A stretch of DNA of 64,000 nt from a virus: the IMG/VR virus record IMGVR_UViG_3300022552_000002, positions 32,001 to 96,000 of that record. The stretch is one strand, 5' to 3'. Below are positions 2,060 through 39,098 of the stretch, in pieces (the stretch's first letter is position 1; every line of letters begins with the position of its first letter). The notes under the pieces are model-generated. The model was not told the DNA's origin. It saw only the letters and a list, made by a program, of their open reading frames with translations, and ran no database searches. The position numbers were made by a program, and so were the translations under genes.

Positions 2060-3298
2060 ATGATGAGTCCTCGTCAAGTGGTCTGTCCTACATGTGGTGT
2101 GCGTCCTGGTCAAAGCTGTGTGACAGTAGATGGTTTTCGAGCACATGGCTATCACGCTGCACGCAAGGGCGTGGCTAATGATAATGGTGCGGCGAAGCCA
2201 AAGCCAAAGAAGGCTAAGAAGAAGCTAGAACCAGCAATGCCGCAGCAGGTTGATGCTTCCAAATTAGTTAATCACATTGCTCTCATTATTGATGGTAGTG
2301 GTTCGATGGGTCATCTTTACAAGAAAGCGCGAGAGGTGATAAATAGTCAGCTGAAAACCATTAAGAAGAATGCAGCTGCAAATAGCATAAAGACTTTTGT
2401 TAGCCTCTATGTCTTTGAGGATAGAGTTAAAACAATTTATGTGAATGTGCCTATTAAGATGGCAGCGCCTTTGAGTGAATTTGATTACGGTCGAAATATG
2501 GGTATGACTGCGCTTCGTGATACAGTGATGCAGGCAGCAGCAGATTTCAATCAGTGGACAAACGATGTTAATCATAGCTTCCTCATTGTAACAGTGACAG
2601 ATGGAATGGAGAATGCATCTCGTCGATATAGAGGGCATTCAGGTAAGAAGCAATTCCAAGAATCTGTTGAAAGATTGCAGAAGACAGATCTCTGGACTTT
2701 TGTGTATTCTGTTCCTCCTGGTGATTCTCGGGAAGTTCAAGATAGTCTTGGTGCTCATCCTGGTAATATTCAGGAATGGCAACAGACAGAGCAAGGTATC
2801 AAGCGTGCTGGTGATATGATCTCTAGCGGTCTTGATACTTATTATACGAGTCGCGCACAAGGTCAGCGTTCAACTACAACCTATTTTGCAGATCTCAAAC
2901 ATGTTGATGATGCTGATCTCGAAAATCTCAATGATGTTTCTGGTAACTTCATTCGTTGGAAGATTCCTTATGATGTCGATATTCGTAGTTTTGTGAATGG
3001 AAAAGTCAATTCTGATATGCGTGTGGCCAGACAAATCGATAGGTACAGACAAGGTAAGGGCTACTATCAGCTGACCAAGAGCGTGCTTGTTCAGGAAAAT
3101 AAAAGGTTCCTCATCATGGACAAGAAAACAGGGGCGATCTTCGGTGGTGAGCAGGCTCGTGCGCTCGCTGGTATCCCCCTTGGCCAACGTCACCAAGTGC
3201 GTCCAGGGGATTTCAAAGACTACCTCCTGTTCATTCAGAGCACTTCTGTCAATCGCAAGCTCATTAGCGGAACTGTTCTTTTGTACGACACAAACTAG
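2060..3298 (+). CDS. zinc-finger / von Willebrand factor A (VWA) domain protein with conserved C-terminal domain
   Basis: N-terminal CPTCGVRPGQSC..H..R finger; MIDAS motifs IIDGSGSM, TALRD and VTDGMEN; C-terminal GYYQLTK...FIQSTSVNRKL. Confidence 0.85.
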   Translation: MMSPRQVVCPTCGVRPGQSCVTVDGFRAHGYHAARKGVANDNGAAKPKPKKAKKKLEPAMPQQVDASKLVNHIALIIDGSGSMGHLYKKAREVINSQLKTIKKNAAANSIKTFVSLYVFEDRVKTIYVNVPIKMAAPLSEFDYGRNMGMTALRDTVMQAAADFNQWTNDVNHSFLIVTVTDGMENASRRYRGHSGKKQFQESVERLQKTDLWTFVYSVPPGDSREVQDSLGAHPGNIQEWQQTEQGIKRAGDMISSGLDTYYTSRAQGQRSTTTYFADLKHVDDADLENLNDVSGNFIRWKIPYDVDIRSFVNGKVNSDMRVARQIDRYRQGKGYYQLTKSVLVQENKRFLIMDKKTGAIFGGEQARALAGIPLGQRHQVRPGDFKDYLLFIQSTSVNRKLISGTVLLYDTN

Positions 3299-3301
3299 AC
3301 T

Positions 3302-3313
3302 TTTGTAGTATAT
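3302..3313 (+). promoter_or_regulatory. repeated intergenic motif TTTGTAGTATAT (copy 1)
   Basis: The identical 12-mer occurs at 6890 (+) and 16229-16240 (-), each intergenic and upstream of genes. Confidence 0.55.
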
Positions 3314-3319
3314 ATAGTG

Positions 3320-3385
3320 GGGGTGCTGGTGGGAGGAAGCTCAGGAGAGTTTCAGACACTCCTCTCTGGGTTCCACCAGCACCCC
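3320..3385 (+). other. GC-rich RNA stem-loop (leader or small structured RNA)
   Basis: GGGGTGCTGGTGG / CCACCAGCACCCC is a perfect 13-bp inverted repeat with additional internal pairing. Confidence 0.6.
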
Positions 3386-3397
3386 TTCGGAGATTGA

Positions 3398-3877
3398 ATG
3401 AAAATCATCTTCCTAGACATTGATGGAGTGCTTGTTACACCAGGCTCATTACGCGCTAGTGGTGGAAAAGTATTCTCTGATTTTCATCCTCCTTGTGTTG
3501 CTTGTTTAAACGAAATTATCAAGAAGTCAAACGCCAAGATTGTAATATCTAGCACTTGGCGTCATGGTCATCCAAAATATTTTGATATACGTTCGTTCTT
3601 AGAAGAACAAGGAGTCAAAGGCGAGATAATAGGAATGACACGAACTGGTGATTCTGCTCATCGTGGAATCAAGATCATGGCTTGGTTAGCAGATCATAGT
3701 AATGGTTTTCAAGTTAAAAATGCAGTAGGTCAAATAATAGGAAGTGATAGAATTGATTCATATGTGATTCTTGATGATACATTGGTTAGACCTTATGATA
3801 ATCTTGTCCAAACAGACATGAATGATGGACTCAATCCAAATCATATCAAAAAAGCATTGGAAATTTTGAATGGATAA
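3398..3877 (+). CDS. HAD-superfamily phosphatase (Swiss-army-knife RNA-repair type, HAD_SAK_2-like)
   Basis: FLDIDGVL, IVISSTWR, RG..I..WL and YVILDD motifs. Confidence 0.85.
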   Translation: MKIIFLDIDGVLVTPGSLRASGGKVFSDFHPPCVACLNEIIKKSNAKIVISSTWRHGHPKYFDIRSFLEEQGVKGEIIGMTRTGDSAHRGIKIMAWLADHSNGFQVKNAVGQIIGSDRIDSYVILDDTLVRPYDNLVQTDMNDGLNPNHIKKALEILNG

Positions 3878-4151
3878 CAATCCAATACGTCCAGGAAGCA
3901 TAGATGAAATGTTTGGTAAGGTAATTCTTTGGGAATTAGAACAAGTAGCTGAAAATCTGAAGATAGATATAAAGGATGTTATTACCGCAATCAAATCAGG
4001 AAAATTAGCATTTGTTCAATTTCCTGGAGAAACAGAAAAAATAGCACTGTATCATTTGTATCAATATGTAGAACAGTACACGTACAAATATGATGAACTC
4101 AAACAAGAAATGATACAGATTATGAAAGGAAAAGAAAATGGCACTGAATAA
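3870..4151 (+). CDS. excisionase-like helix-turn-helix DNA-binding protein
   Basis: LEQVAENLKIDIKDVITAIKSGKL resembles the HTH_17/MerR-like winged HTH. Confidence 0.6.
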   Translation: MDNNPIRPGSIDEMFGKVILWELEQVAENLKIDIKDVITAIKSGKLAFVQFPGETEKIALYHLYQYVEQYTYKYDELKQEMIQIMKGKENGTE

Positions 4152-4488
4152 ACACGAATTGAGAATTCTTCTTGTTATTCTACAAAGAATGAATAAGGTT
4201 TCGAATAATTACGAATCGTGCAGTGAGTGTGGCACGATTCATGAAATTAATGAATTTGATGATTTGCAATTTGATTTTCAAATGGAAATCATCGATCATC
4301 CAAGTAATAGACAGATTGCAGTAGCTATGGAGAGTTTTATTATCGAAAGAAACAAAAGAAACGAAGATGATATGATTTTTGAAGCTGGTCAATCTAAACC
4401 TGGAAAGGGCCAGCGAAAGATGATTTACTTCAATTCGTACTATATGTTTGAGTATCTGATGCATAGGATAAAAGAAGAGAGCGAATAA
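4138..4488 (+). CDS. hypothetical protein
   Basis: 116-aa ORF containing CSECG. Confidence 0.6.
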   Translation: MALNKHELRILLVILQRMNKVSNNYESCSECGTIHEINEFDDLQFDFQMEIIDHPSNRQIAVAMESFIIERNKRNEDDMIFEAGQSKPGKGQRKMIYFNSYYMFEYLMHRIKEESE

Positions 4489-8551: not shown

Positions 8552-8786
8552 TCGCTCTGAGTATCCATTAAGCTACTATGACATCGTGGAGTACATGCTC
8601 CACGGTGATTATAGTAAATATCAATTCAAGCGTCCACCTGAAGAGGTGAGTGTTATGGTGCATGATTATATGTGTCATGCTGAAAAAGCATCGGCAATAT
8701 TCCATCCTGAATATGGATGGTTTGTAATCAAGGCACCATGTTCAGTTGTTGCATGGTGGAAGAAGACACACTTGATAGGAGATTGA
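8538..8786 (+). CDS. hypothetical protein
   Basis: Fills the gap between the NYN gene and the next gene; start uncertain. Confidence 0.5.
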   Translation: MPIADRSEYPLSYYDIVEYMLHGDYSKYQFKRPPEEVSVMVHDYMCHAEKASAIFHPEYGWFVIKAPCSVVAWWKKTHLIGD

Positions 8787-8787
8787 G

Positions 8788-9327
8788 ATGTTTGCTACAG
8801 AATATTTTGAAGACGAAACATGTGATGGTGAGGGATGTAATGACGAAGAATGCATTTCAACAAAAATTCATTTTGTAGGATTACTTGTAGAATATGATCA
8901 TATTCTACCAACTGTTGAAATTAATCATAAGGGTGATATTTATTATAAATTAGCCAATGATGGAGGAGGTTTTAGCGAAGAAGAGAGTATAAGGACAGAT
9001 ATCGATGCTGCTCTTCTACGTCTTGAAAGAGAGTGCGCGGCAATAAAATCTTTCCACGGACAAATCAGAACAAAAGAACAAAGAAAAATCGTTGAGATTC
9101 TTGGTTTGAGGCACACTGGAAAGAAAATTGTGATTGAAAATAATAATGAATGCTACGGTTTACTATACAGTAAGAATGCTGAAGTTTGTAATCTTCATTG
9201 TGGATTAATGAAACAATGTATTCATAGTACAAAAATACTTCGAAAAAGAATAGAGAATGTTTTTCCAACTATGAGCAGAACAATCTTTAAGTTGATGAAG
9301 GAGATTATGGATAGCGATGAACGTTAA
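8788..9327 (+). CDS. hypothetical protein with Cys4 motif
   Basis: AGGAG SD; ECYG-x9-C-x3-C-x5-C. Confidence 0.7.
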   Translation: MFATEYFEDETCDGEGCNDEECISTKIHFVGLLVEYDHILPTVEINHKGDIYYKLANDGGGFSEEESIRTDIDAALLRLERECAAIKSFHGQIRTKEQRKIVEILGLRHTGKKIVIENNNECYGLLYSKNAEVCNLHCGLMKQCIHSTKILRKRIENVFPTMSRTIFKLMKEIMDSDER

Positions 9328-11030: not shown

Positions 11031-11261
11031 ATGGCATCTTCAAAAAGCACAGGTAGTGCTGTTGACCATCCTTCTCATTATAACCAAGGTAAAATTGAAG
11101 TTATCGATTTTATTGAAGACCAGAATCTCGGTTTTCATGAAGGTAGTGCGGTAAAGTATATATGTAGGCATCTATTTAAAGGAAAGCCAGTTGAAGATTT
11201 AGAAAAAGCCATTTGGTATCTTCAGCGTCTTATCTCTCTGCATAAGGGAGGTGCGCGATGA
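11031..11261 (+). CDS. DUF3310 (SaV-like / T7 gp1.7-like) protein
   Basis: VDHPSHYNQGKIEVIDFI...KYICR...EDLEKAIWYL signature. Confidence 0.9.
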   Translation: MASSKSTGSAVDHPSHYNQGKIEVIDFIEDQNLGFHEGSAVKYICRHLFKGKPVEDLEKAIWYLQRLISLHKGGAR

Positions 11262-11890
11262 AGGTTGACGAACTCGACTACACAGTTTTAACACCGGACG
11301 TTGATTTCGAACGTATGTTAACGTGTATCGAACGTGCTGGTAGAAATTGCTACAAATCAGAGGATAAGATCACTGATGAGAGCGCTAAGGCTTTCGTGGC
11401 TATGCTTATCAAGCGTGGTCATGAAGCAATGTTGGAACACGCACCTAACATTGGTACTTTATTTCATGTGCCACGAGGATTAACTCATGAATTCGTTAGA
11501 CATCGTTTAGCTAGTTTCGGTCAAGAGAGCACTAGGTACTGCAACTACTCCAAGGGAAAGTTCGGTACTGAATTGACGTTGATTCCAATGATGGATGGTC
11601 TGACCTCGGTCCAGATAGAGCGTCGTAAGGACTTGTGGGAGGCCATTGAGCGTGTGTACCTGGCCGAGATTGACGAAGGCATCAAACCTCAACAAGCTCG
11701 TGACAACCTGCCTATTTGTCTAAAGTCGGACATCGTCATTACCACTAACGTCCGACATTGGCGCGAGATCTTTCGACAGCGGACGACGAAGTTTGCACAT
11801 CCACAGATGCAGACAGTTATGAAGAAGTTATTGGCCGACTTCCGTAGCCGTGTGTCTGTGTTATTCGATGATGTTGGAACAGTTGATTAA
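11258..11890 (+). CDS. thyX: FAD-dependent thymidylate synthase
   Basis: RGHEAMLEH, HEFVRHRLASFGQESTRY (RHRx7S motif) and QARDNLP. Confidence 0.95.
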   Translation: MKVDELDYTVLTPDVDFERMLTCIERAGRNCYKSEDKITDESAKAFVAMLIKRGHEAMLEHAPNIGTLFHVPRGLTHEFVRHRLASFGQESTRYCNYSKGKFGTELTLIPMMDGLTSVQIERRKDLWEAIERVYLAEIDEGIKPQQARDNLPICLKSDIVITTNVRHWREIFRQRTTKFAHPQMQTVMKKLLADFRSRVSVLFDDVGTVD

Positions 11891-14042: not shown

Positions 14043-14533
14043 TCTGTTCTCGGATATCTCTTCACGCCAAATTCATCGACTACGCAGACTTGTTTTCCTA
14101 GTGCCAAATATCTATCAATGGTAGAAAGCCATTGATATCCATTACTATCTTTTCTAGCGAAAATGAGTAGCGAACGTGTTTTCTCTGCCATTGAATCAAA
14201 TTTTGTAAACTTTATTTCTTTCTCAGTGTATTTCTCCATTATTTTTCGATACGGTGTGGTTCCGATCTCAGTAGTTACTCTGAATTTCCAGTTGGTAGCT
14301 TTCAATTGTTTCATGATTGATTTGAATATTTTTTGACCTTTATTTTCAGCTTCTAATCCATCTTTCAAAAGAAGTGGTATTTGGTCTCCTGGTTTTACAG
14401 AATTAGGTTGACCACGATAATCAGAATCAATAATTATCATCATAGTGCGATTTGCTTCAGCACCACGCAGAAAGATATCGTTGACGGAAGATTGTGGACT
14501 AGGTCGCATAAAACGAATTTGTTTCTTCTTCAT
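14039..14533 (-). CDS. hypothetical protein (weak SLOG/YspA-like alpha/beta pattern)
   Basis: ATGA-coupled to the M15 peptidase gene; C-terminal LLIF...STI..YLALGKQVCVV. Confidence 0.6.
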   Translation of the reverse strand: MKKKQIRFMRPSPQSSVNDIFLRGAEANRTMMIIIDSDYRGQPNSVKPGDQIPLLLKDGLEAENKGQKIFKSIMKQLKATNWKFRVTTEIGTTPYRKIMEKYTEKEIKFTKFDSMAEKTRSLLIFARKDSNGYQWLSTIDRYLALGKQVCVVDEFGVKRYPRTD

Positions 14534-17078: not shown

Positions 17079-19094
17079 ATGTTATCAATTAGTTCCGACA
17101 TAAAAAATAGTATAGGATCTCACTTTGATGAAGTTGTTGAATCAAAGAAAAAAGAACTGAAAAAATCGAAGAGTAAAAAACTTAAATTAGTTGAAGAAAA
17201 ACCTAAGCGCTTTCCACGACCAGTAAAACGCTTTCCCAAACCAGAAGGATGGACTCCACCTAGTTATCGAATAATCGTCAAGAAAGAACTTGATGAGGAA
17301 ACGATGAATAGGTGGATGTCTACTCCTCCGGGATGGCTTGCTGCATTAACTGAAGATGCAGAAGGTGATCCGACTGAGTTTTATGATTATCAAAATGAAC
17401 ATTTGCTCGACCAATCAATTTTCAAAGGTGTAGATAAAGCCAGACAAACTGGTTTCAGTTATGGCAAAGCTGGAGAAGCTTTAGCTAAAAGCCATTTGAA
17501 GTTGGTTCAGACAACGATTTTTATTTCAAAAGACAAAGAAGAAGCAAATGAAAAAATTTACTTTGCAAAATATCTATATTATTCAATGCCAACAGAGTAT
17601 CAAAGAAAAATTGTTGTTGAAAACAAGCAATCATTAGAGTTCGAATACAAGAATAGACGCACAAGAATTCTTAGTTTTGCTCAACGTCAACCTCGTGGTA
17701 AAGGCAATAACACAGATATTCTTCTTGACGAGTTCGCTCATATGATATGGGCGAATGAAATTTATACAGCTGCCGTTCCTGTTATTACCAGAGGTTCAGG
17801 AACAATTACTGTTGGTTCTACTCCACTTGGTAAGGGAACACTTCATTATGAAATCATGAATAATAAGGAAGGTTTTCCCTATTATTCACGTATACAAATT
17901 CCTTGGTGGTATTGTCCAATTCTTTGTACCAACGTTGAAGATGCCAGAAAACTCGCTCCTTTCATGGAAACAAAGGAGCGAGTTGATATATTTGGTACGC
18001 AAAAATTGAAAATGATTTATAAATCAATGATTGATGAAGAAGATTTTCAACAGGAATATGAACTTCATACAGCTGATGAAAGTTATTCTTATTATCCATT
18101 AGACCTGATTCGTTCTTGTGCATTCGAAGATGAGAAGAGTCAGATACTCGAAAACAATATCGATCCAGATGAGATTCCTGTAGGCTTCGCTCCAGTCAAA
18201 GGTGAGAGTGGTTTAGTGATGCCTGATACCATCATGAACCACTACAAGGATGAACATATCAATTGGTATTGCGATACAAATTCATTCCATGATGAAAATA
18301 CTATTATGGATGGCATTGAAGAAATGACAGATAAACTTCTGTTAGCAATGCAGATTGAAGGCTTTGGAAGAAATCTTCTTCTTGGAATGGATATTGGACG
18401 AAAGAGAGATAGTTCAGAGATTAGCATACTTGAAGAACATGATTTAGATTTATATAACCTTCATATCGAAAGAATGATGATAGAGCTGATTCACATACCA
18501 TATAGAATCCAAAAAGAAGCAATCAGGCTACTGATTAAAAAACTTCCAATTGTCAAGGCCACTATCGATGGGACAGAAGGTTCGCATGGTGCGGACATAG
18601 CTGAGACATTGACTTACGAATTTCCACAAGTTATTGAATCGATGAATTTTACTCCTGAATCAAAAGCACGTATGGCTAAGAATTTCCGCTTCAGATTGGA
18701 AGACAGAACAGTTGCTTTGTTGAATGATTCTAAGTCGATAAAGCAAATTCACAGCATTAAAAAGATTGTCACTGAAGCATCAAATGTAAAATTTGGTGCT
18801 GAAAAATCCAAGAAACATCATGGTGATAAATTCTGGTCTAAAGCATTAGCTAGTATTGGTGGTAATGAATATGATAGAAACAACATTATACAATCAGGAA
18901 AAATAATTGGTATTGGCGATAGCAGAAACTTTGCATCAAATTTGCATAATGGCGACTCAATCATTAGAATAGCTGACAATTCAATGACACCCAATATGCA
19001 ATTAGTGAAAAGTAGAATCCACAAAGACGATTTGCTCAGCGAAAGAGACGCTTATCAAGGCGAATTCTTTGACGCTGTTCCACATAAGTTCTAG
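17079..19094 (+). CDS. terL: terminase large subunit (Mu gp28-like)
   Basis: Walker A KARQTGFS, Walker B ILLDEFAH, STP coupling motif, nuclease GMDIGRKRD and HGDKFWSKALA. Start uncertain. Confidence 0.95.
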   Translation: MLSISSDIKNSIGSHFDEVVESKKKELKKSKSKKLKLVEEKPKRFPRPVKRFPKPEGWTPPSYRIIVKKELDEETMNRWMSTPPGWLAALTEDAEGDPTEFYDYQNEHLLDQSIFKGVDKARQTGFSYGKAGEALAKSHLKLVQTTIFISKDKEEANEKIYFAKYLYYSMPTEYQRKIVVENKQSLEFEYKNRRTRILSFAQRQPRGKGNNTDILLDEFAHMIWANEIYTAAVPVITRGSGTITVGSTPLGKGTLHYEIMNNKEGFPYYSRIQIPWWYCPILCTNVEDARKLAPFMETKERVDIFGTQKLKMIYKSMIDEEDFQQEYELHTADESYSYYPLDLIRSCAFEDEKSQILENNIDPDEIPVGFAPVKGESGLVMPDTIMNHYKDEHINWYCDTNSFHDENTIMDGIEEMTDKLLLAMQIEGFGRNLLLGMDIGRKRDSSEISILEEHDLDLYNLHIERMMIELIHIPYRIQKEAIRLLIKKLPIVKATIDGTEGSHGADIAETLTYEFPQVIESMNFTPESKARMAKNFRFRLEDRTVALLNDSKSIKQIHSIKKIVTEASNVKFGAEKSKKHHGDKFWSKALASIGGNEYDRNNIIQSGKIIGIGDSRNFASNLHNGDSIIRIADNSMTPNMQLVKSRIHKDDLLSERDAYQGEFFDAVPHKF

Positions 19095-23303: not shown

Positions 23304-24557
23304 ATGGATGATCTGAGAAACCACGAACTCCTCCAGCCAGCGCATATCTCCAAGCTGCTGGATGAGATCATTCCTGACGACAGTCAGTATTACATGACGA
23401 CTATCATTCCGTTAGTCACTCAGGATACTGACGAAGTGATCGTGGATGTGCGCGACAATATCGGTGGCATGACTCAGGCAGTGGCCCAGGGTGCTGAGTC
23501 GCCGATGGTTGAGTTCCGGGGACAGAGCCAGTTCAAGTTCACCCCGGCGCATTTCCGTGAGAAGACAGTGTTGAGTGAGCGCGATCTCAAAGTGATCCGC
23601 AAGATCGGTACTGCTTCTGAGTTAGCCAAGGCTGAAGATCGTGTGGCCGAGGTCGTTGGTGGTCTGCGTATGCGCCTCGAGACAAGGATCGAGTGGTGCA
23701 AATGGCAGATGGTCTTCGGTACTCTCGACATCGATCAAACCGATGTGCAGTTCTCGGTGGATTACGGTATTCCAGCGGACTACACGCCAACACTCGCTGG
23801 TGTTGACAAATGGGATGCGCTGGCAACAGCTGATCCTGTTGATGACATCATTGAGTGGGCGTACCTGTTCAGGGATGAGGGAATCGATCCTGAGTACCTG
23901 CTCTTTACTCGTGCGGTCGAGAAGCTTCTGCTTCAGAACACAACACTGCGTGAGTTGGCCGAGGCACACTACACCAATACCGGCAAAGCCGAGATGAACA
24001 CGGCTCGCCTCAACGAGATGCTGAAAACCTTCGCGGGTTATGCATACAAGGTGTACGACAAGGGTTACTTCTTCAAGATGAAGTTAGAAACTCCTGTCAC
24101 ACCAGCGAGCACAAGCTTCATCGTCAGCGAGAACCCTGGTGTCAATACTGGTGATGAGGTGACGTTGATCCACAAGAGTGGTTCGCGTCTTCCTGGTGGA
24201 AAAGTGAAAGTCACGGTCACGCCGACCGGTCTTTCCTTTGCGCACGCTGCTATCGGTGGAACCGTGACCTTCCCGGCCGGTTCTACCGTTCGCATCAAGA
24301 AACGCTTCATCCCTGACAACCTAGCGTTGCTCATGGGTGCGGTGCCTCCTGGGACCACAGGTGGTACGGACTTCGCAGAGTTCGTTTCAACTCCAAGTCC
24401 CTACAATGGTGGCATCATGAATGCGCAGCCTGGTCCGTTCGGGAAGGTTGTTGTGGATGATGATGGCGATCCTCCTAAGGTGTCGGTCATTGCCGGTATC
24501 TCGGGGCTTCCTGTTCTGTATCATCCGACCTGCAACCTGATCGCTACTGTCTACTAG
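23304..24557 (+). CDS. major capsid protein (lambda gpE-like, HK97 fold) with inserted beta-domain
   Basis: FTPAHFREK, LETRIEWCKWQMVFG, VDYGIP, KWD..ADPVDDI, RFIPD and GLPVLYHP motifs; strong codon bias. Confidence 0.9.
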   Translation: MDDLRNHELLQPAHISKLLDEIIPDDSQYYMTTIIPLVTQDTDEVIVDVRDNIGGMTQAVAQGAESPMVEFRGQSQFKFTPAHFREKTVLSERDLKVIRKIGTASELAKAEDRVAEVVGGLRMRLETRIEWCKWQMVFGTLDIDQTDVQFSVDYGIPADYTPTLAGVDKWDALATADPVDDIIEWAYLFRDEGIDPEYLLFTRAVEKLLLQNTTLRELAEAHYTNTGKAEMNTARLNEMLKTFAGYAYKVYDKGYFFKMKLETPVTPASTSFIVSENPGVNTGDEVTLIHKSGSRLPGGKVKVTVTPTGLSFAHAAIGGTVTFPAGSTVRIKKRFIPDNLALLMGAVPPGTTGGTDFAEFVSTPSPYNGGIMNAQPGPFGKVVVDDDGDPPKVSVIAGISGLPVLYHPTCNLIATVY

Positions 24558-24575
24558 CGTAGACGTGATGAATGT

Positions 24576-24618
24576 TTTTCAAGGCTGGGGTATGGGAAAC
24601 TGTACCCCACCTTGAAAA
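24576..24618 (+). terminator. long stem-loop after the major capsid gene (terminator, processing or stabilising hairpin)
   Basis: TTTTCAAGG-C-TGGGGTATGG-GAAA-CTGTACCCCA-CCTTGAAAA, with a GNRA tetraloop. Confidence 0.65.
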
Positions 24619-24663
24619 GCTTCTTCATAAAATAAAAAACAACAGAAACGATAGGAGAAAACG

Positions 24664-35967: not shown

Positions 35968-37752
35968 ATGGGTACTCTTGGTCGAATTGCAATTGGAGCC
36001 CGTGGCCAGACTTCCTACGGGGAAGAGGTCGCTTGGGGCGAACCAGTTGCGCCTACTCGAAGAGTGGGTTTTGTTTCTGAATCTTTCAACAACGAGATCG
36101 CAAGTCTCGTTTCAGAGGAAATCGATCCTAGTCGTGGTATCTCGAAGCGTGCTCAAGGTGTGAGTAACATCTCGGGTGATCTAGCTTTCGAGCAGAACAC
36201 GCAGGGATACGAAACTCTGTACAAACATGCTCTTGGTGATCACGTCACCATGAACAAGGTTGATGGTGGTGTTCGAACACAGATTCTTTCTGATTACGTT
36301 TCAGGTACAACGTTGTCAGTTGAGAACAATGCTGTGTTCGAAGGCACACCTGGAGCGGATTGGGGTCTGTCAGTTGTCTACAAAGACAGCAATGGACTCT
36401 TGACCGTTCAGGCAGTGGTATATTCTGCGCTGGATTCTGGTGGTGAAGACATCACCATCGTCGATCCAAGTCAGGTGCTTCATAAGGGCGCGTGGGTTTT
36501 CCAGAGCTATATCGGCAGCGATGACTTCTGGGATGATGTTTACACGCACTACATCGAAGCAGCACGCGATCTTCCCATCGGTCTGACCTGGGAGATCGGT
36601 CGTGACGTGGCGTTCTTCACTTATGGTGGCTGCAAAGTCAACACAGCGGAGAATACCTTCACGGCACAGGAGATTTGCACAGGCACATTCTCCTACATCG
36701 GTAAGGGCGAGTATGTTGGTGGTGAGTTGGTTTCTGATGTCACTGCTGGTGATACAACCTTTACTCTCACTGACTACGTTCTGACAAACAGTGGTAGCAT
36801 TAGTGCTGCTGTTCAGACTGTTGGTGCTGGTCTCAGTGACATCACTGTGAGTGGTGCGTTCACTGGTGATGAAACAACCGCTTACCAAATCAAGATCTCG
36901 TTGGCAGGTGCCACAGACGAGTTTGACTGGTCGAGCGATGGTGGCGTGACCTGGACAACTGGTGTCGTTATGACTGGTGCAGCTCAGCTGCTCGACCAAG
37001 GCGTCTCCATTACATGGGCAGCTATCACAGGCCATGTGCTTGATGACGAGTGGCGCATTCAGACTGGTGACATCATCGGTTTCAACTTCTCCGGTGCCAC
37101 GGTGCAGATGGAGTCCGAGAACGATATCACTTACACAAGCTATAACGCTTACAGTGGTGTCTTCTCTGGTGTTCCAGCTTCCGGTGTTGGTTCTGTCGAG
37201 TATGACCATAGTGCAACTCTTCCGGTTGCTCCGCAGTCTACTTGGGGAACCAGCGTCACAGAGCCGCCAGCTCTCAATCCCATTACTAGCTTCAAGGCTG
37301 GTATCTACATCAATGGGACGTTCCAAGAGGTGCTGTCTGCTAGCTGGACCCTCAACAACAACCTGTTCGCAGACAAGTTCCAGCTTGGTGACAGATACCG
37401 AGCTGGTCTTCCTGAGCAGCAAAGAACGGTTGAGGGCACGTTCAACACCGAGTTCGATGATACGGTCCTCTACAAAGCTTATCTCAAAGGTGCTCGTGCT
37501 TTCCTCGAGATTCGCTGCATTGAAGACCAGAACCGCATCGACAGCCAAGGTGTGCAGACTGCTCCGACAGGACACTGGATTTACTCCCAGAAGCACTGTC
37601 TGTTCCCGAAGGTCTACTACAGTGGCACCACACCGCAGATCGGTGGCCCTGAGCAGATCGTCCACGATTTCCCGTTCCAGGCATTCGTGGATAACGAGAA
37701 CACCATGAATGAAATGGCGCTCATCTTCGTCAACGAAAGAGTGTCCATCTAG
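35968..37752 (+). CDS. major tail tube protein with inserted domains
   Basis: GEEVAWGEP..FVSES, FTYGGCKVN, WTLNNNL..RTVEGTF.TEFDD and LFPKVYY motifs; strong codon bias. Confidence 0.85.
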   Translation: MGTLGRIAIGARGQTSYGEEVAWGEPVAPTRRVGFVSESFNNEIASLVSEEIDPSRGISKRAQGVSNISGDLAFEQNTQGYETLYKHALGDHVTMNKVDGGVRTQILSDYVSGTTLSVENNAVFEGTPGADWGLSVVYKDSNGLLTVQAVVYSALDSGGEDITIVDPSQVLHKGAWVFQSYIGSDDFWDDVYTHYIEAARDLPIGLTWEIGRDVAFFTYGGCKVNTAENTFTAQEICTGTFSYIGKGEYVGGELVSDVTAGDTTFTLTDYVLTNSGSISAAVQTVGAGLSDITVSGAFTGDETTAYQIKISLAGATDEFDWSSDGGVTWTTGVVMTGAAQLLDQGVSITWAAITGHVLDDEWRIQTGDIIGFNFSGATVQMESENDITYTSYNAYSGVFSGVPASGVGSVEYDHSATLPVAPQSTWGTSVTEPPALNPITSFKAGIYINGTFQEVLSASWTLNNNLFADKFQLGDRYRAGLPEQQRTVEGTFNTEFDDTVLYKAYLKGARAFLEIRCIEDQNRIDSQGVQTAPTGHWIYSQKHCLFPKVYYSGTTPQIGGPEQIVHDFPFQAFVDNENTMNEMALIFVNERVSI

Positions 37753-37764
37753 CCTAGAGTCTTT

Positions 37765-37845
37765 CCGCTGAATTTCCCCCGAGGAGCAGCGGTCGTCATG
37801 GAGGTGGGTGAAGTAGTAGCGAGAGCGAACCTTCACTCACCTCCA
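37765..37845 (+). other. tandem RNA hairpins after the tail tube gene; the second carries a bulged-G (loop E/sarcin-ricin) motif
   Basis: CCGCTG/CAGCGG stem; TGGAGGTGGGTGAAG/CTTCACTCACCTCCA stem enclosing U-AGUA-GC-GAGA-GC-GAA-C. Confidence 0.65.
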
Positions 37846-38100
37846 CTCCCCATCCTTATGATTACAAAGATTTCATATTGGTTAGCTATTGCGTTTTATT
37901 CTCCAAGTATACTTATAGCCAAACTCTATAATTACATTGCATATAAACTTCTTAAATCATCATATGAATCTTATGGAATGCCTGCTGGTTATCGTTCGAA
38001 GCTAGCCTTGAAGCTAAGGACAAGAGCGTATAAGATAGTGGACGAAGTTGCGGTAGATGCAATTGCATATGCTGCACAGATAAAAGAAAAGGAGACAATA

Positions 38101-38490
38101 ATGAAAGCGATTCGTGCAGACCACCCCTACGACCTCGTTCCCAAAGAAGACAAAAAGAAGCCAAAGAAAGAGCAGACCATCTTCAAGGTCAAGTTCATCG
38201 ATCCCTACATGGCAGCCAAGCTGGGCGACCAGATGTTCGATGTGAAGGGTGCTGGCTCCAGTCGTAAGGAGAGGCTGCTCACAGGTACACAGGCTCTCGA
38301 GATCTTGAAGGATTGTTTGGTGGGTTGGGAAAATCTTGAGCATCCTGATTCTACCGAAGAGAACAAGAAACTCGTCGAATTCGATAAGAAGGATATCGAC
38401 GGGATGATTGAGATGGTTCATCCGAAGACCCGCTCCGAGATTGTTGACTTTGCCCGTGGTGAGTCTGAACTCGATGAGGGGGAAGAGTAA
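38101..38490 (+). CDS. tail assembly chaperone (G-like)
   Basis: AGGAG SD; LVGWENL motif; between tail tube and tape measure. Confidence 0.8.
   Translation: MKAIRADHPYDLVPKEDKKKPKKEQTIFKVKFIDPYMAAKLGDQMFDVKGAGSSRKERLLTGTQALEILKDCLVGWENLEHPDSTEENKKLVEFDKKDIDGMIEMVHPKTRSEIVDFARGESELDEGEE
38478..38484 (+). other. programmed -1 frameshift slippery site GGGGGAA
   Basis: Located two codons before the chaperone stop; the -1 frame is open from here (KLRDIVRF..WTCDFC) through the 38580 ORF to 39098. Confidence 0.75.
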
Positions 38491-39098
38491 AGCTAAGAGA
38501 TATTGTACGCTTCCGGTATTTCTTAGCGACCGGTGACAGTCCAAAGCAGCGTCAGAAAGAGTGGACTTGCGACTTCTGTATGTCGCAAGAAGGCAAAAGT
38601 TTGCCTTTGGATAGAAATTGTCCTTTTGCTAATAAAAAAGAAAGGAATCTTCTTCAAAAGAAACATGAAGAATCATCTCTTAGAAAATATGACTTTAGTC
38701 GCAAAAGAAAAGCACCAAAGAAAAAACAGAATGTTGTTGAAGAGGAAATAAAACAAAAAGAAGCAGAAGGAACACCAGCACTTGTGGTTGGTGAACATGA
38801 GATATATTCCTGTCCTGTTGCTATAATGTCAGACAACAGAGGATTGACAGGATTGATAGACCTGATAAACTGGTCTTCAGATATGCACACTCCATTGTTT
38901 GATGGAGGCTTAATTAATCACACTAACTATTACTTTGAATGCTATCGGACTGTTATCGGAGAGCAGAGAGCAATTGAAGCTGAAGAGACAAAGAGACATC
39001 GCAAGGAAGCTGAAGCTGGTAGGAAGAAGGGTGGCAAAGGAAAAGGCAAGCTAGGTAAACCTCGAGCCGGTAAAGCTTCCAGAGCGCGAAGAAGATAA
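38481..39098 (+). CDS. tail assembly chaperone C-terminal (T-like) part, expressed by -1 frameshift
   Basis: Open -1 frame; CDFC..NCP..SCPV and PLFDGGL..H motifs. Confidence 0.7.
   Translation, partial: GRVKLRDIVRFRYFLATGDSPKQRQKEWTCDFCMSQEGKSLPLDRNCPFANKKERNLLQKKHEESSLRKYDFSRKRKAPKKKQNVVEEEIKQKEAEGTPALVVGEHEIYSCPVAIMSDNRGLTGLIDLINWSSDMHTPLFDGGLINHTNYYFECYRTVIGEQRAIEAEETKRHRKEAEAGRKKGGKGKGKLGKPRAGKASRARRR

Follow-up and report, generated by a model that had tools for sequence, protein, structure and literature searches.

Organization of the Tail Tube Locus

The window, a 64,000-nt stretch of DNA, comprises bases 32001–96000 of a 110-kb record of an uncultured virus (76% complete) with a genomic G+C content of 38%. 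The tail tube gene (35968..37752, + strand) encodes a protein of 594 aa that matches PF18906 (Phage_tube_2; E 2e-28) and PHROG 290, and its G+C content, taken in windows of 200 bases, is 47–56% as against 38% for the genome. An intergenic gap of 105 nt separates it from the next gene (37858..38490, + strand, 210 aa), downstream of which lies a tape measure gene encoding 3752 aa. The gap contains a small upstream hairpin, H1 (37766..37793, + strand), and the main hairpin, H2 (37799..37845, + strand). A preliminary description of this DNA had placed a hairpin downstream of a tail tube gene, and the PF18906 match of the upstream gene bears out that placement.

The open reading frame of the next gene starts at ATG 37858, 12 nt past the end of the H2 stem and without a Shine-Dalgarno sequence; the protein is conserved in relatives from its first residues, MITK. 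This start opens an A+T-rich, hydrophobic N-terminal part of 81 aa. A second in-frame start, ATG 38101, has a strong AAGGAG in front of it and begins a conserved part of 129 aa, and gene callers are divided between the 210-aa and the 129-aa form. Relatives keep both parts and are free of stop codons between them, and in a sediment relative of ~90% identity (run X5) 19 of the 30 listed differences over 37893–38073 fall in third codon positions. Judged from the sequences, the two starts suggest that long and short isoforms of a probable tail chaperone may be made. The gene probably encodes a tail assembly chaperone, as indicated by its position and by an acidic C-terminal tail of the protein; comparison with Pfam and PHROGs gave no matches.

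Two ways in which the hairpin region could be translated were considered and rejected. A 230-aa protein cluster entry (P0002) begins at ATG 37798, which lies within the hairpin, but the upstream ATG is out of frame or missing in relatives, and the protein alignment starts at MITK (37858). Because ATG 37798 is not a conserved start and the downstream protein is conserved from MITK, H2 is a non-coding, intercistronic hairpin within the late tail operon. The frame of the tube gene is open past its TAG stop codon into the next gene (window 37750–38490), as readthrough of the stop codon through the hairpin would need; the same frame is stopped within 4–30 codons in five relatives (L003, L005, L006, L007, and L016; see below). 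Being thus confined to the window phage, the open frame is no evidence for conserved readthrough.

No DNA match was present in a GenBank phage collection, the downstream protein (37858–38490) had no tblastn matches in that collection, and the tail tube protein gave only weak partial matches there, to Cellulophaga phages. A search of Rfam over 37000–39000, with E values up to 10, returned chance-level matches only and no rRNA family.

Structure of the Main Hairpin

H2 begins 46 nt past the tube stop codon, on the coding strand, and reads UGGAGGUGGGUGAAG-U-AGUA-GC-GAGA-GC-GAA-C-CUUCACUCACCUCCA on the + strand. A stem of 15 bp, running from U37799–A37845 to G37813–C37831 and including one G–U pair and eight G–C pairs, is followed by the internal loop UAGUA/GAAC, a 2-bp helix (GC/GC) and a GAGA tetraloop. 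Sequence and RNAfold both agree with the stem and closing loop that had been described at 37799–37845. In RNAfold this structure is both the minimum free energy and the centroid structure (–29.3 kcal/mol, z = –3.86), and none of 200 shuffled sequences was as stable. In a scan of the window that took stems of 10 bp or more and loops of 3–20 nt, H2 was the longest uninterrupted stem of the + strand. H1, evident from the sequence, has the stem CCGCUG...CAGCGG and a C-rich/GAGGA loop.

H2 has the G+C-rich stem-loop of an intrinsic terminator, on the coding strand where a gene ends, and lacks the U-tract: the tail after the stem, ACUCCCCAUCCUU, is C-rich, and the H2 site was not among the matches of a terminator consensus scan.

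The apical cap, U-AGUA-GC-GAGA-GC-GAA-C (37814..37830, + strand), combines the bulged-G consensus of the sarcin-ricin type with a GNRA loop. [quoted passage not shown] A loose version of the motif, AGUA-(1–3 bp)-GNRA-(1–3 bp)-GA[A/C], has a single occurrence in the 110-kb genome, where shuffles lead one to expect 0.63; its presence alone is not rare and means little. For one named hairpin, the chance of finding it precisely at the tip works out at about 3e-6 from the shuffle counts, so that it is improbable for the present window taken singly. With about 90 stems of at least 10 bp on both strands per window and a survey of about 250,000 such windows, tens of such tip coincidences are expected. 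An alternative to chance is selection for a compact, stable tip, as the GAAA loop of a sister hairpin (see below) and the C(UUCG)G loop of the nearest relative exemplify. A hairpin cap combining AGUA/GAA with GNRA is thus insufficient for calling an rRNA mimic.

Conservation of the Hairpin in Related Loci

Relatives were gathered via the tube protein and the downstream protein from viral, metagenome and genome contigs, and each locus had a tube homologue immediately upstream according to tblastn. Thirteen loci are distinct, namely the window, L003, L005–L007 and L009–L016; the intergenic sequence of L008 is that of L007. A strong hairpin is present in the tube-downstream gap of all 13, with free energies of about –17 to –46 kcal/mol in 12 loci, the hairpin of L009 having been read by eye. 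The AGUA/GAA/GNRA cap is present in none of the 12 related loci, and the loop differs in every one (UUCG, UUUAACGA and others).

In L005, the closest relative (downstream protein 88% identical), a gap of 86 nt holds a plain 13-bp C(UUCG)G hairpin, with the 5' arm GGGGAGGGUGGUC, the loop UUCG, the 3' arm GGCCACCCUCCCC and the tail AUUUUCU. The sediment relative of run X5 has this form too, the 105-nt gap being replaced there by 86 other letters. A contig from a vent metagenome of a separate study (X4) carries the window form, identical through the GAGA loop. The hairpin of L016 (75%) consists of the 5' arm GGAGUGGGUGGU(UU), the loop UUUUGG, the 3' arm (UG)GACCACCCACUCC and the tail CAUUUUUAUU; at its base, GGAG(G)UGGGUG, the window stem can be recognised as a homologue of the L016 stem, and the upper 23 nt differ. 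L003 (60%) has the 5' arm AGGGAGGGUAG, the loop UUUAACGA, the 3' arm CUGCCCUCCCU and the tail UUUUUCC, and L006 (56%) has the 5' arm AGAGCCUGGUAU, the loop CUAAAAA, the 3' arm AUAUCAGGCUCU and the tail UUUUUUU. L007 forms a larger structure of 66 nt, and the hairpins of L009–L015 have stems of 9–15 bp, loops of 9–17 nt and pyrimidine-rich tails. A U-tract follows the hairpin in the manner of an intrinsic terminator in L003, L005, L006 and L016, unlike in the window.

On the sequences compared, the cap appears to be confined to the window lineage among the tail-locus relatives. Since stem and position are kept and the loops are different in every lineage, it is the stem with its stability that is under selection, rather than the sequence of the cap. 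Motif conservation in related phages was the check that the preliminary description had proposed for its rRNA-like element, and the finding that stem and position are kept and AGUA/GAA/GNRA is lost is the outcome that it had itself named as refuting. Inspection of the homologous site is a fast way of settling such candidates for rRNA mimicry.

Several further features of these loci were observed. In most of the homologous hairpins (window, L003, L005, L010–L013, L015 and L016), the 5' arm is rich in purines and of the GGAGG/GGGAGG type and the 3' arm is of the CCUCC type, the two arms resembling Shine-Dalgarno and anti-Shine-Dalgarno sequences. In a distant group (L010, L012–L015), the tail, CCUCUUCA, and the ribosome-binding site that follows it, GAAAGGAG, are both conserved and are partly complementary. 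H1, located between the tube stop codon and H2, has a conserved loop, UCUCCCCCGAGGA, and is found in close relatives only: L002, L005 (~92–122) and L016 (~1409–1435). In L016 its stem is CCGCUA/UAGCGG, a compensatory change on both sides of one pair. L016 (DAOVRZ010000040.1) is a 42-kb contig in a Halanaerobiales MAG and has the same tail module, with protein identities of 75–79%; it could represent a prophage or a phage contig placed in the wrong bin, or it could point to the host.

A Sister Hairpin Downstream of the Major Capsid Gene

Directly 3' of the major capsid gene (23304–24557, + strand; PHROG 29) stands a sister hairpin (24565..24628, + strand) of ~28 bp with a GAAA tetraloop (–37.6 kcal/mol, z = –8.4). 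It is longer than the tube hairpin and also has no U-tract. The capsid and tube genes form two G+C-rich islands (~50–55% vs 38% for the genome), a richness that would be a mark of high expression. In codon composition both genes differ strikingly from the structural genes around them. The genes for the capsid and the tube, presumably the two most abundant virion proteins, are thus each followed directly by a hairpin of high stability with a tetraloop cap. Canonical hairpin-plus-U terminators are used elsewhere in the genome (GGGGCUUUCGCCCCUUUU near G000 14387–14405, and G000 18068–18110), and the missing U-tract at H2 is therefore informative.

A Related RNA Module Upstream of DGR Reverse Transcriptase Genes

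The exact 17-mer of the cap has one further occurrence in the viral contig collection, in L017, where it lies between the template repeat (TR) and the reverse transcriptase (RT) gene of a DGR. This system includes a variable repeat (VR; 2880–2996) in an Mtd-like gene, the TR (3055–3171), the hairpin (3277–3314) and the RT gene (3325–4329). The shared 17-mer was rejected as evidence of transfer: a rough estimate of the size of the collection leads one to expect several chance 17-mer matches, and a constrained motif coincides easily.

The hairpin itself recurs. In 27 loci with related RTs, a hairpin is located in the 40 nt before the RT start, with (U)AGUA and GAA invariant. These hairpins consist of (U)AGUA, a 2-bp helix, a mostly GNRA loop, the second side of the 2-bp helix and GAA(A/C), and the helix covaries (GC/GC, AC/GU, GG/CC, AA/UU, GA/UC and GU/AC). 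Over the ten drawn pairs, 84% of cells pair, compared with 36–49% in slid registers, and none of 500 shuffles matched the observed pairing or covariation score.

A covariance model, R1, was built from 18 of these DGR spacer hairpins, with the window and the sequence of L017/L018 excluded. It recovered the held-out L017 (40.9 bits, E 6e-8), and its best non-DGR match in 116 kb was the window hairpin (22.5 bits, E 0.0045). It found nothing in the tube-gap hairpins of the 12 related loci; a match in L011 at 1984–2039 (E 0.07), apart from the tube-gap hairpin of that locus (1411–1443), was treated as chance. According to the model, the window cap conforms well to a natural RNA module that is under selection and whose spacer is likewise of 2 bp, and this match makes it likely that the cap folds as an S-turn.

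The window element was nevertheless rejected as a DGR target, template or other DGR part. The 110-kb record, 76% complete, contains no RT match to PF00078 and no TR/VR-type repeat of the hairpin region, and CAAAAUAC, the conserved element upstream in DGR spacers, is absent at the window hairpin. The likeness to the DGR spacer hairpins (L017–L044) resides in UAGUA, 2 bp, a mostly GNRA loop, 2 bp and GAA(A/C), up to identity of the 17-mer in L017; the window differs from them in a much longer and perfect outer stem and in its tail operon context, as well as in lacking an RT, template and variable repeats and CAAAAUAC.

In a Bordetella phage DGR, a stem-loop just upstream of brt binds the RT (bioRxiv 10.1101/2023.10.23.563531), and the hairpins of the present DGR clade occupy the position of that stem-loop. 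The term "S-turn" is absent from the text of that report, and a literature search found no description of a DGR spacer hairpin as an S-turn, sarcin or bulged motif. This conserved, covarying module beside DGR RT genes is a more promising lead than the tail hairpin and may merit a follow-up of its own.

Role of the Hairpin

H2 is best explained as an intercistronic attenuator or a 3'-end-protecting hairpin after a presumably highly expressed tail gene, with the cap as a lineage-specific remodelling of its tip; we give this reading a probability of roughly 0.7. A positionally conserved, stable hairpin after the tube gene is found in 13 of 13 loci, and the capsid gene is followed by its sister. 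The preliminary description had listed an extra-stable processing or terminator hairpin among its options, and this option fits the comparative evidence, position and a G-rich/C-rich stem being what is kept. From the directly established structure, position and positional conservation of the hairpin, and from the non-conservation of its cap, we infer that a hairpin placed after the most abundantly needed tail gene would raise the level of tube mRNA above that of the mRNAs for the chaperone-like protein, the tape measure protein and later tail proteins. In the relatives with U-tracts, the same outcome would probably be reached by partial intrinsic termination. In the window phage, with its C-rich tail, the hairpin would by analogy more likely act as a barrier to 3'-to-5' exonucleases, possibly one formed after processing by an endonuclease of the RNase III type. 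Through the cap, a 17-nt loop that would otherwise be flexible would have become a closed tip in which S-turn, two pairs and GNRA are stacked. No link between the cap and the ribosome can be demonstrated.

Two points stand against the attenuator or 3'-end-protecting role. H2 has no U-tract, and the termination part of the explanation does not apply to it directly. In addition, the cap is very improbable by chance for one named hairpin (~3e-6) and matches a covarying family at E 0.0045, and it may have been selected for something more specific than stability.

The other readings differ in whether they start from the stem or from the cap. In phage T7, cleavage by RNase III at processing sites leaves a protective 3' stem on the upstream mRNA. 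The ~21 stacked layers of H2 and the ~28-bp hairpin after the capsid gene could likewise be substrates of the double-strand RNase of the host, after whose cleavage the upstream mRNA would keep such a stem. Both hairpins are long for terminators and have no U-tracts, and they contain an internal loop or bulges; set against a length of about two turns of double-stranded RNA, H2 offers 15 bp, 3–4 non-canonical layers and 2 bp. The homologous hairpins of the relatives, however, are short (9–14 bp), have tetraloops or small loops and in four cases U-tracts, features that fit terminators better, and we regard an RNase III site as unlikely. A distinctly unlikely reading, likewise, is that the window lineage gained the S-turn and GNRA cap as a place where a protein, of the phage or of the host, docks; the stability of tube mRNA or the translation of the next gene could be regulated in this way. 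Hairpins of this kind appear to play such a docking role beside DGR RT genes; the window hairpin is the best non-DGR match to model R1 and shares the architecture of the DGR spacer hairpins, including the 2-bp spacer, and the next open reading frame begins close to the stem with no Shine-Dalgarno sequence of its own. Yet the RT, the TR/VR-type repeat and CAAAAUAC are all absent, close relatives manage without the cap, and no candidate binding protein has been identified. An SRL-type protein-binding element, as suggested in the preliminary description, is not supported either, the cap being retained in 0 of 12 related loci.

Protein docking can also be cast more boldly, as an S-turn and GNRA module grafted onto the 3' hairpin of the most abundant tail transcript, where it would be a decoy for SRL nucleases or a handle for an RNA-binding protein like the apparent reader of the DGR module; we consider this very improbable. 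Least credible of all is the rRNA mimic that had originally been put forward, in which the cap would serve as a likeness of 23S helix 95 carried by a plentiful late mRNA and would absorb SRL-cleaving defence toxins or bind translation GTPases. The sequence likeness is real, and bacterial toxins that cleave the SRL exist, including VapC20 and VapC26 (PMC5175351) and SRLase1 (bioRxiv 10.64898/2026.09.18.752725). SRLase1 is reported to need EF-Tu, which would imply action in the context of the ribosome, a context that a free hairpin would lack. The cap is moreover missing in all 12 related loci, one of them ~88–90% identical, and has no Rfam match, and its spacer is of two base pairs where helix 95 has a single C–G pair. 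No description of a phage SRL decoy was found in the titles and abstracts returned by a full-text literature search on sarcin-ricin loop, bacteriophage and mimicry.

Comparison With Known Systems

Helix 95 of 23S rRNA, the SRL, reads U-AGUA-C-GAGA-G-GAC-C in Escherichia coli (2653–2667). The window cap shares with it, at the level of the sequence consensus only, the U·C juxtaposition, the AGUA/GA(A) bulged-G consensus and the GAGA tetraloop. It differs in placing two base pairs (G–C and C–G) between the motif and the tetraloop, and this two-pair spacer in place of one means that the geometry is changed with respect to helix 95; as ribotoxin studies indicate, a two-pair spacer gives the tetraloop a different placement with respect to the bulged G. 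The cap also stands on a 15-bp mRNA stem, is unconserved in homologues and has neither an rRNA context nor an Rfam match.

Tailed phages are well known to set transcript ratios by hairpins placed after their major capsid and major tail genes, and the finding matters little as it stands. In Bacillus phage SPP1, predicted stem-loop terminators are located directly after capsid gene 13 (8775–8815) and directly after tail tube gene 17.1* (11,255–11,304), before the chaperone gene (PMC6316719). The window resembles SPP1 (PMC6316719) in this layout: one hairpin occupies the short gap between the tube gene and the probable chaperone gene, another follows the major capsid gene immediately, and the two lie on the coding strand within a long operon of late genes. 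The hairpins of SPP1 are short and have U-tracts, whereas H2 of the window has a stem of 15 bp, a structured cap and a C-rich tail and is probably not an efficient intrinsic terminator.
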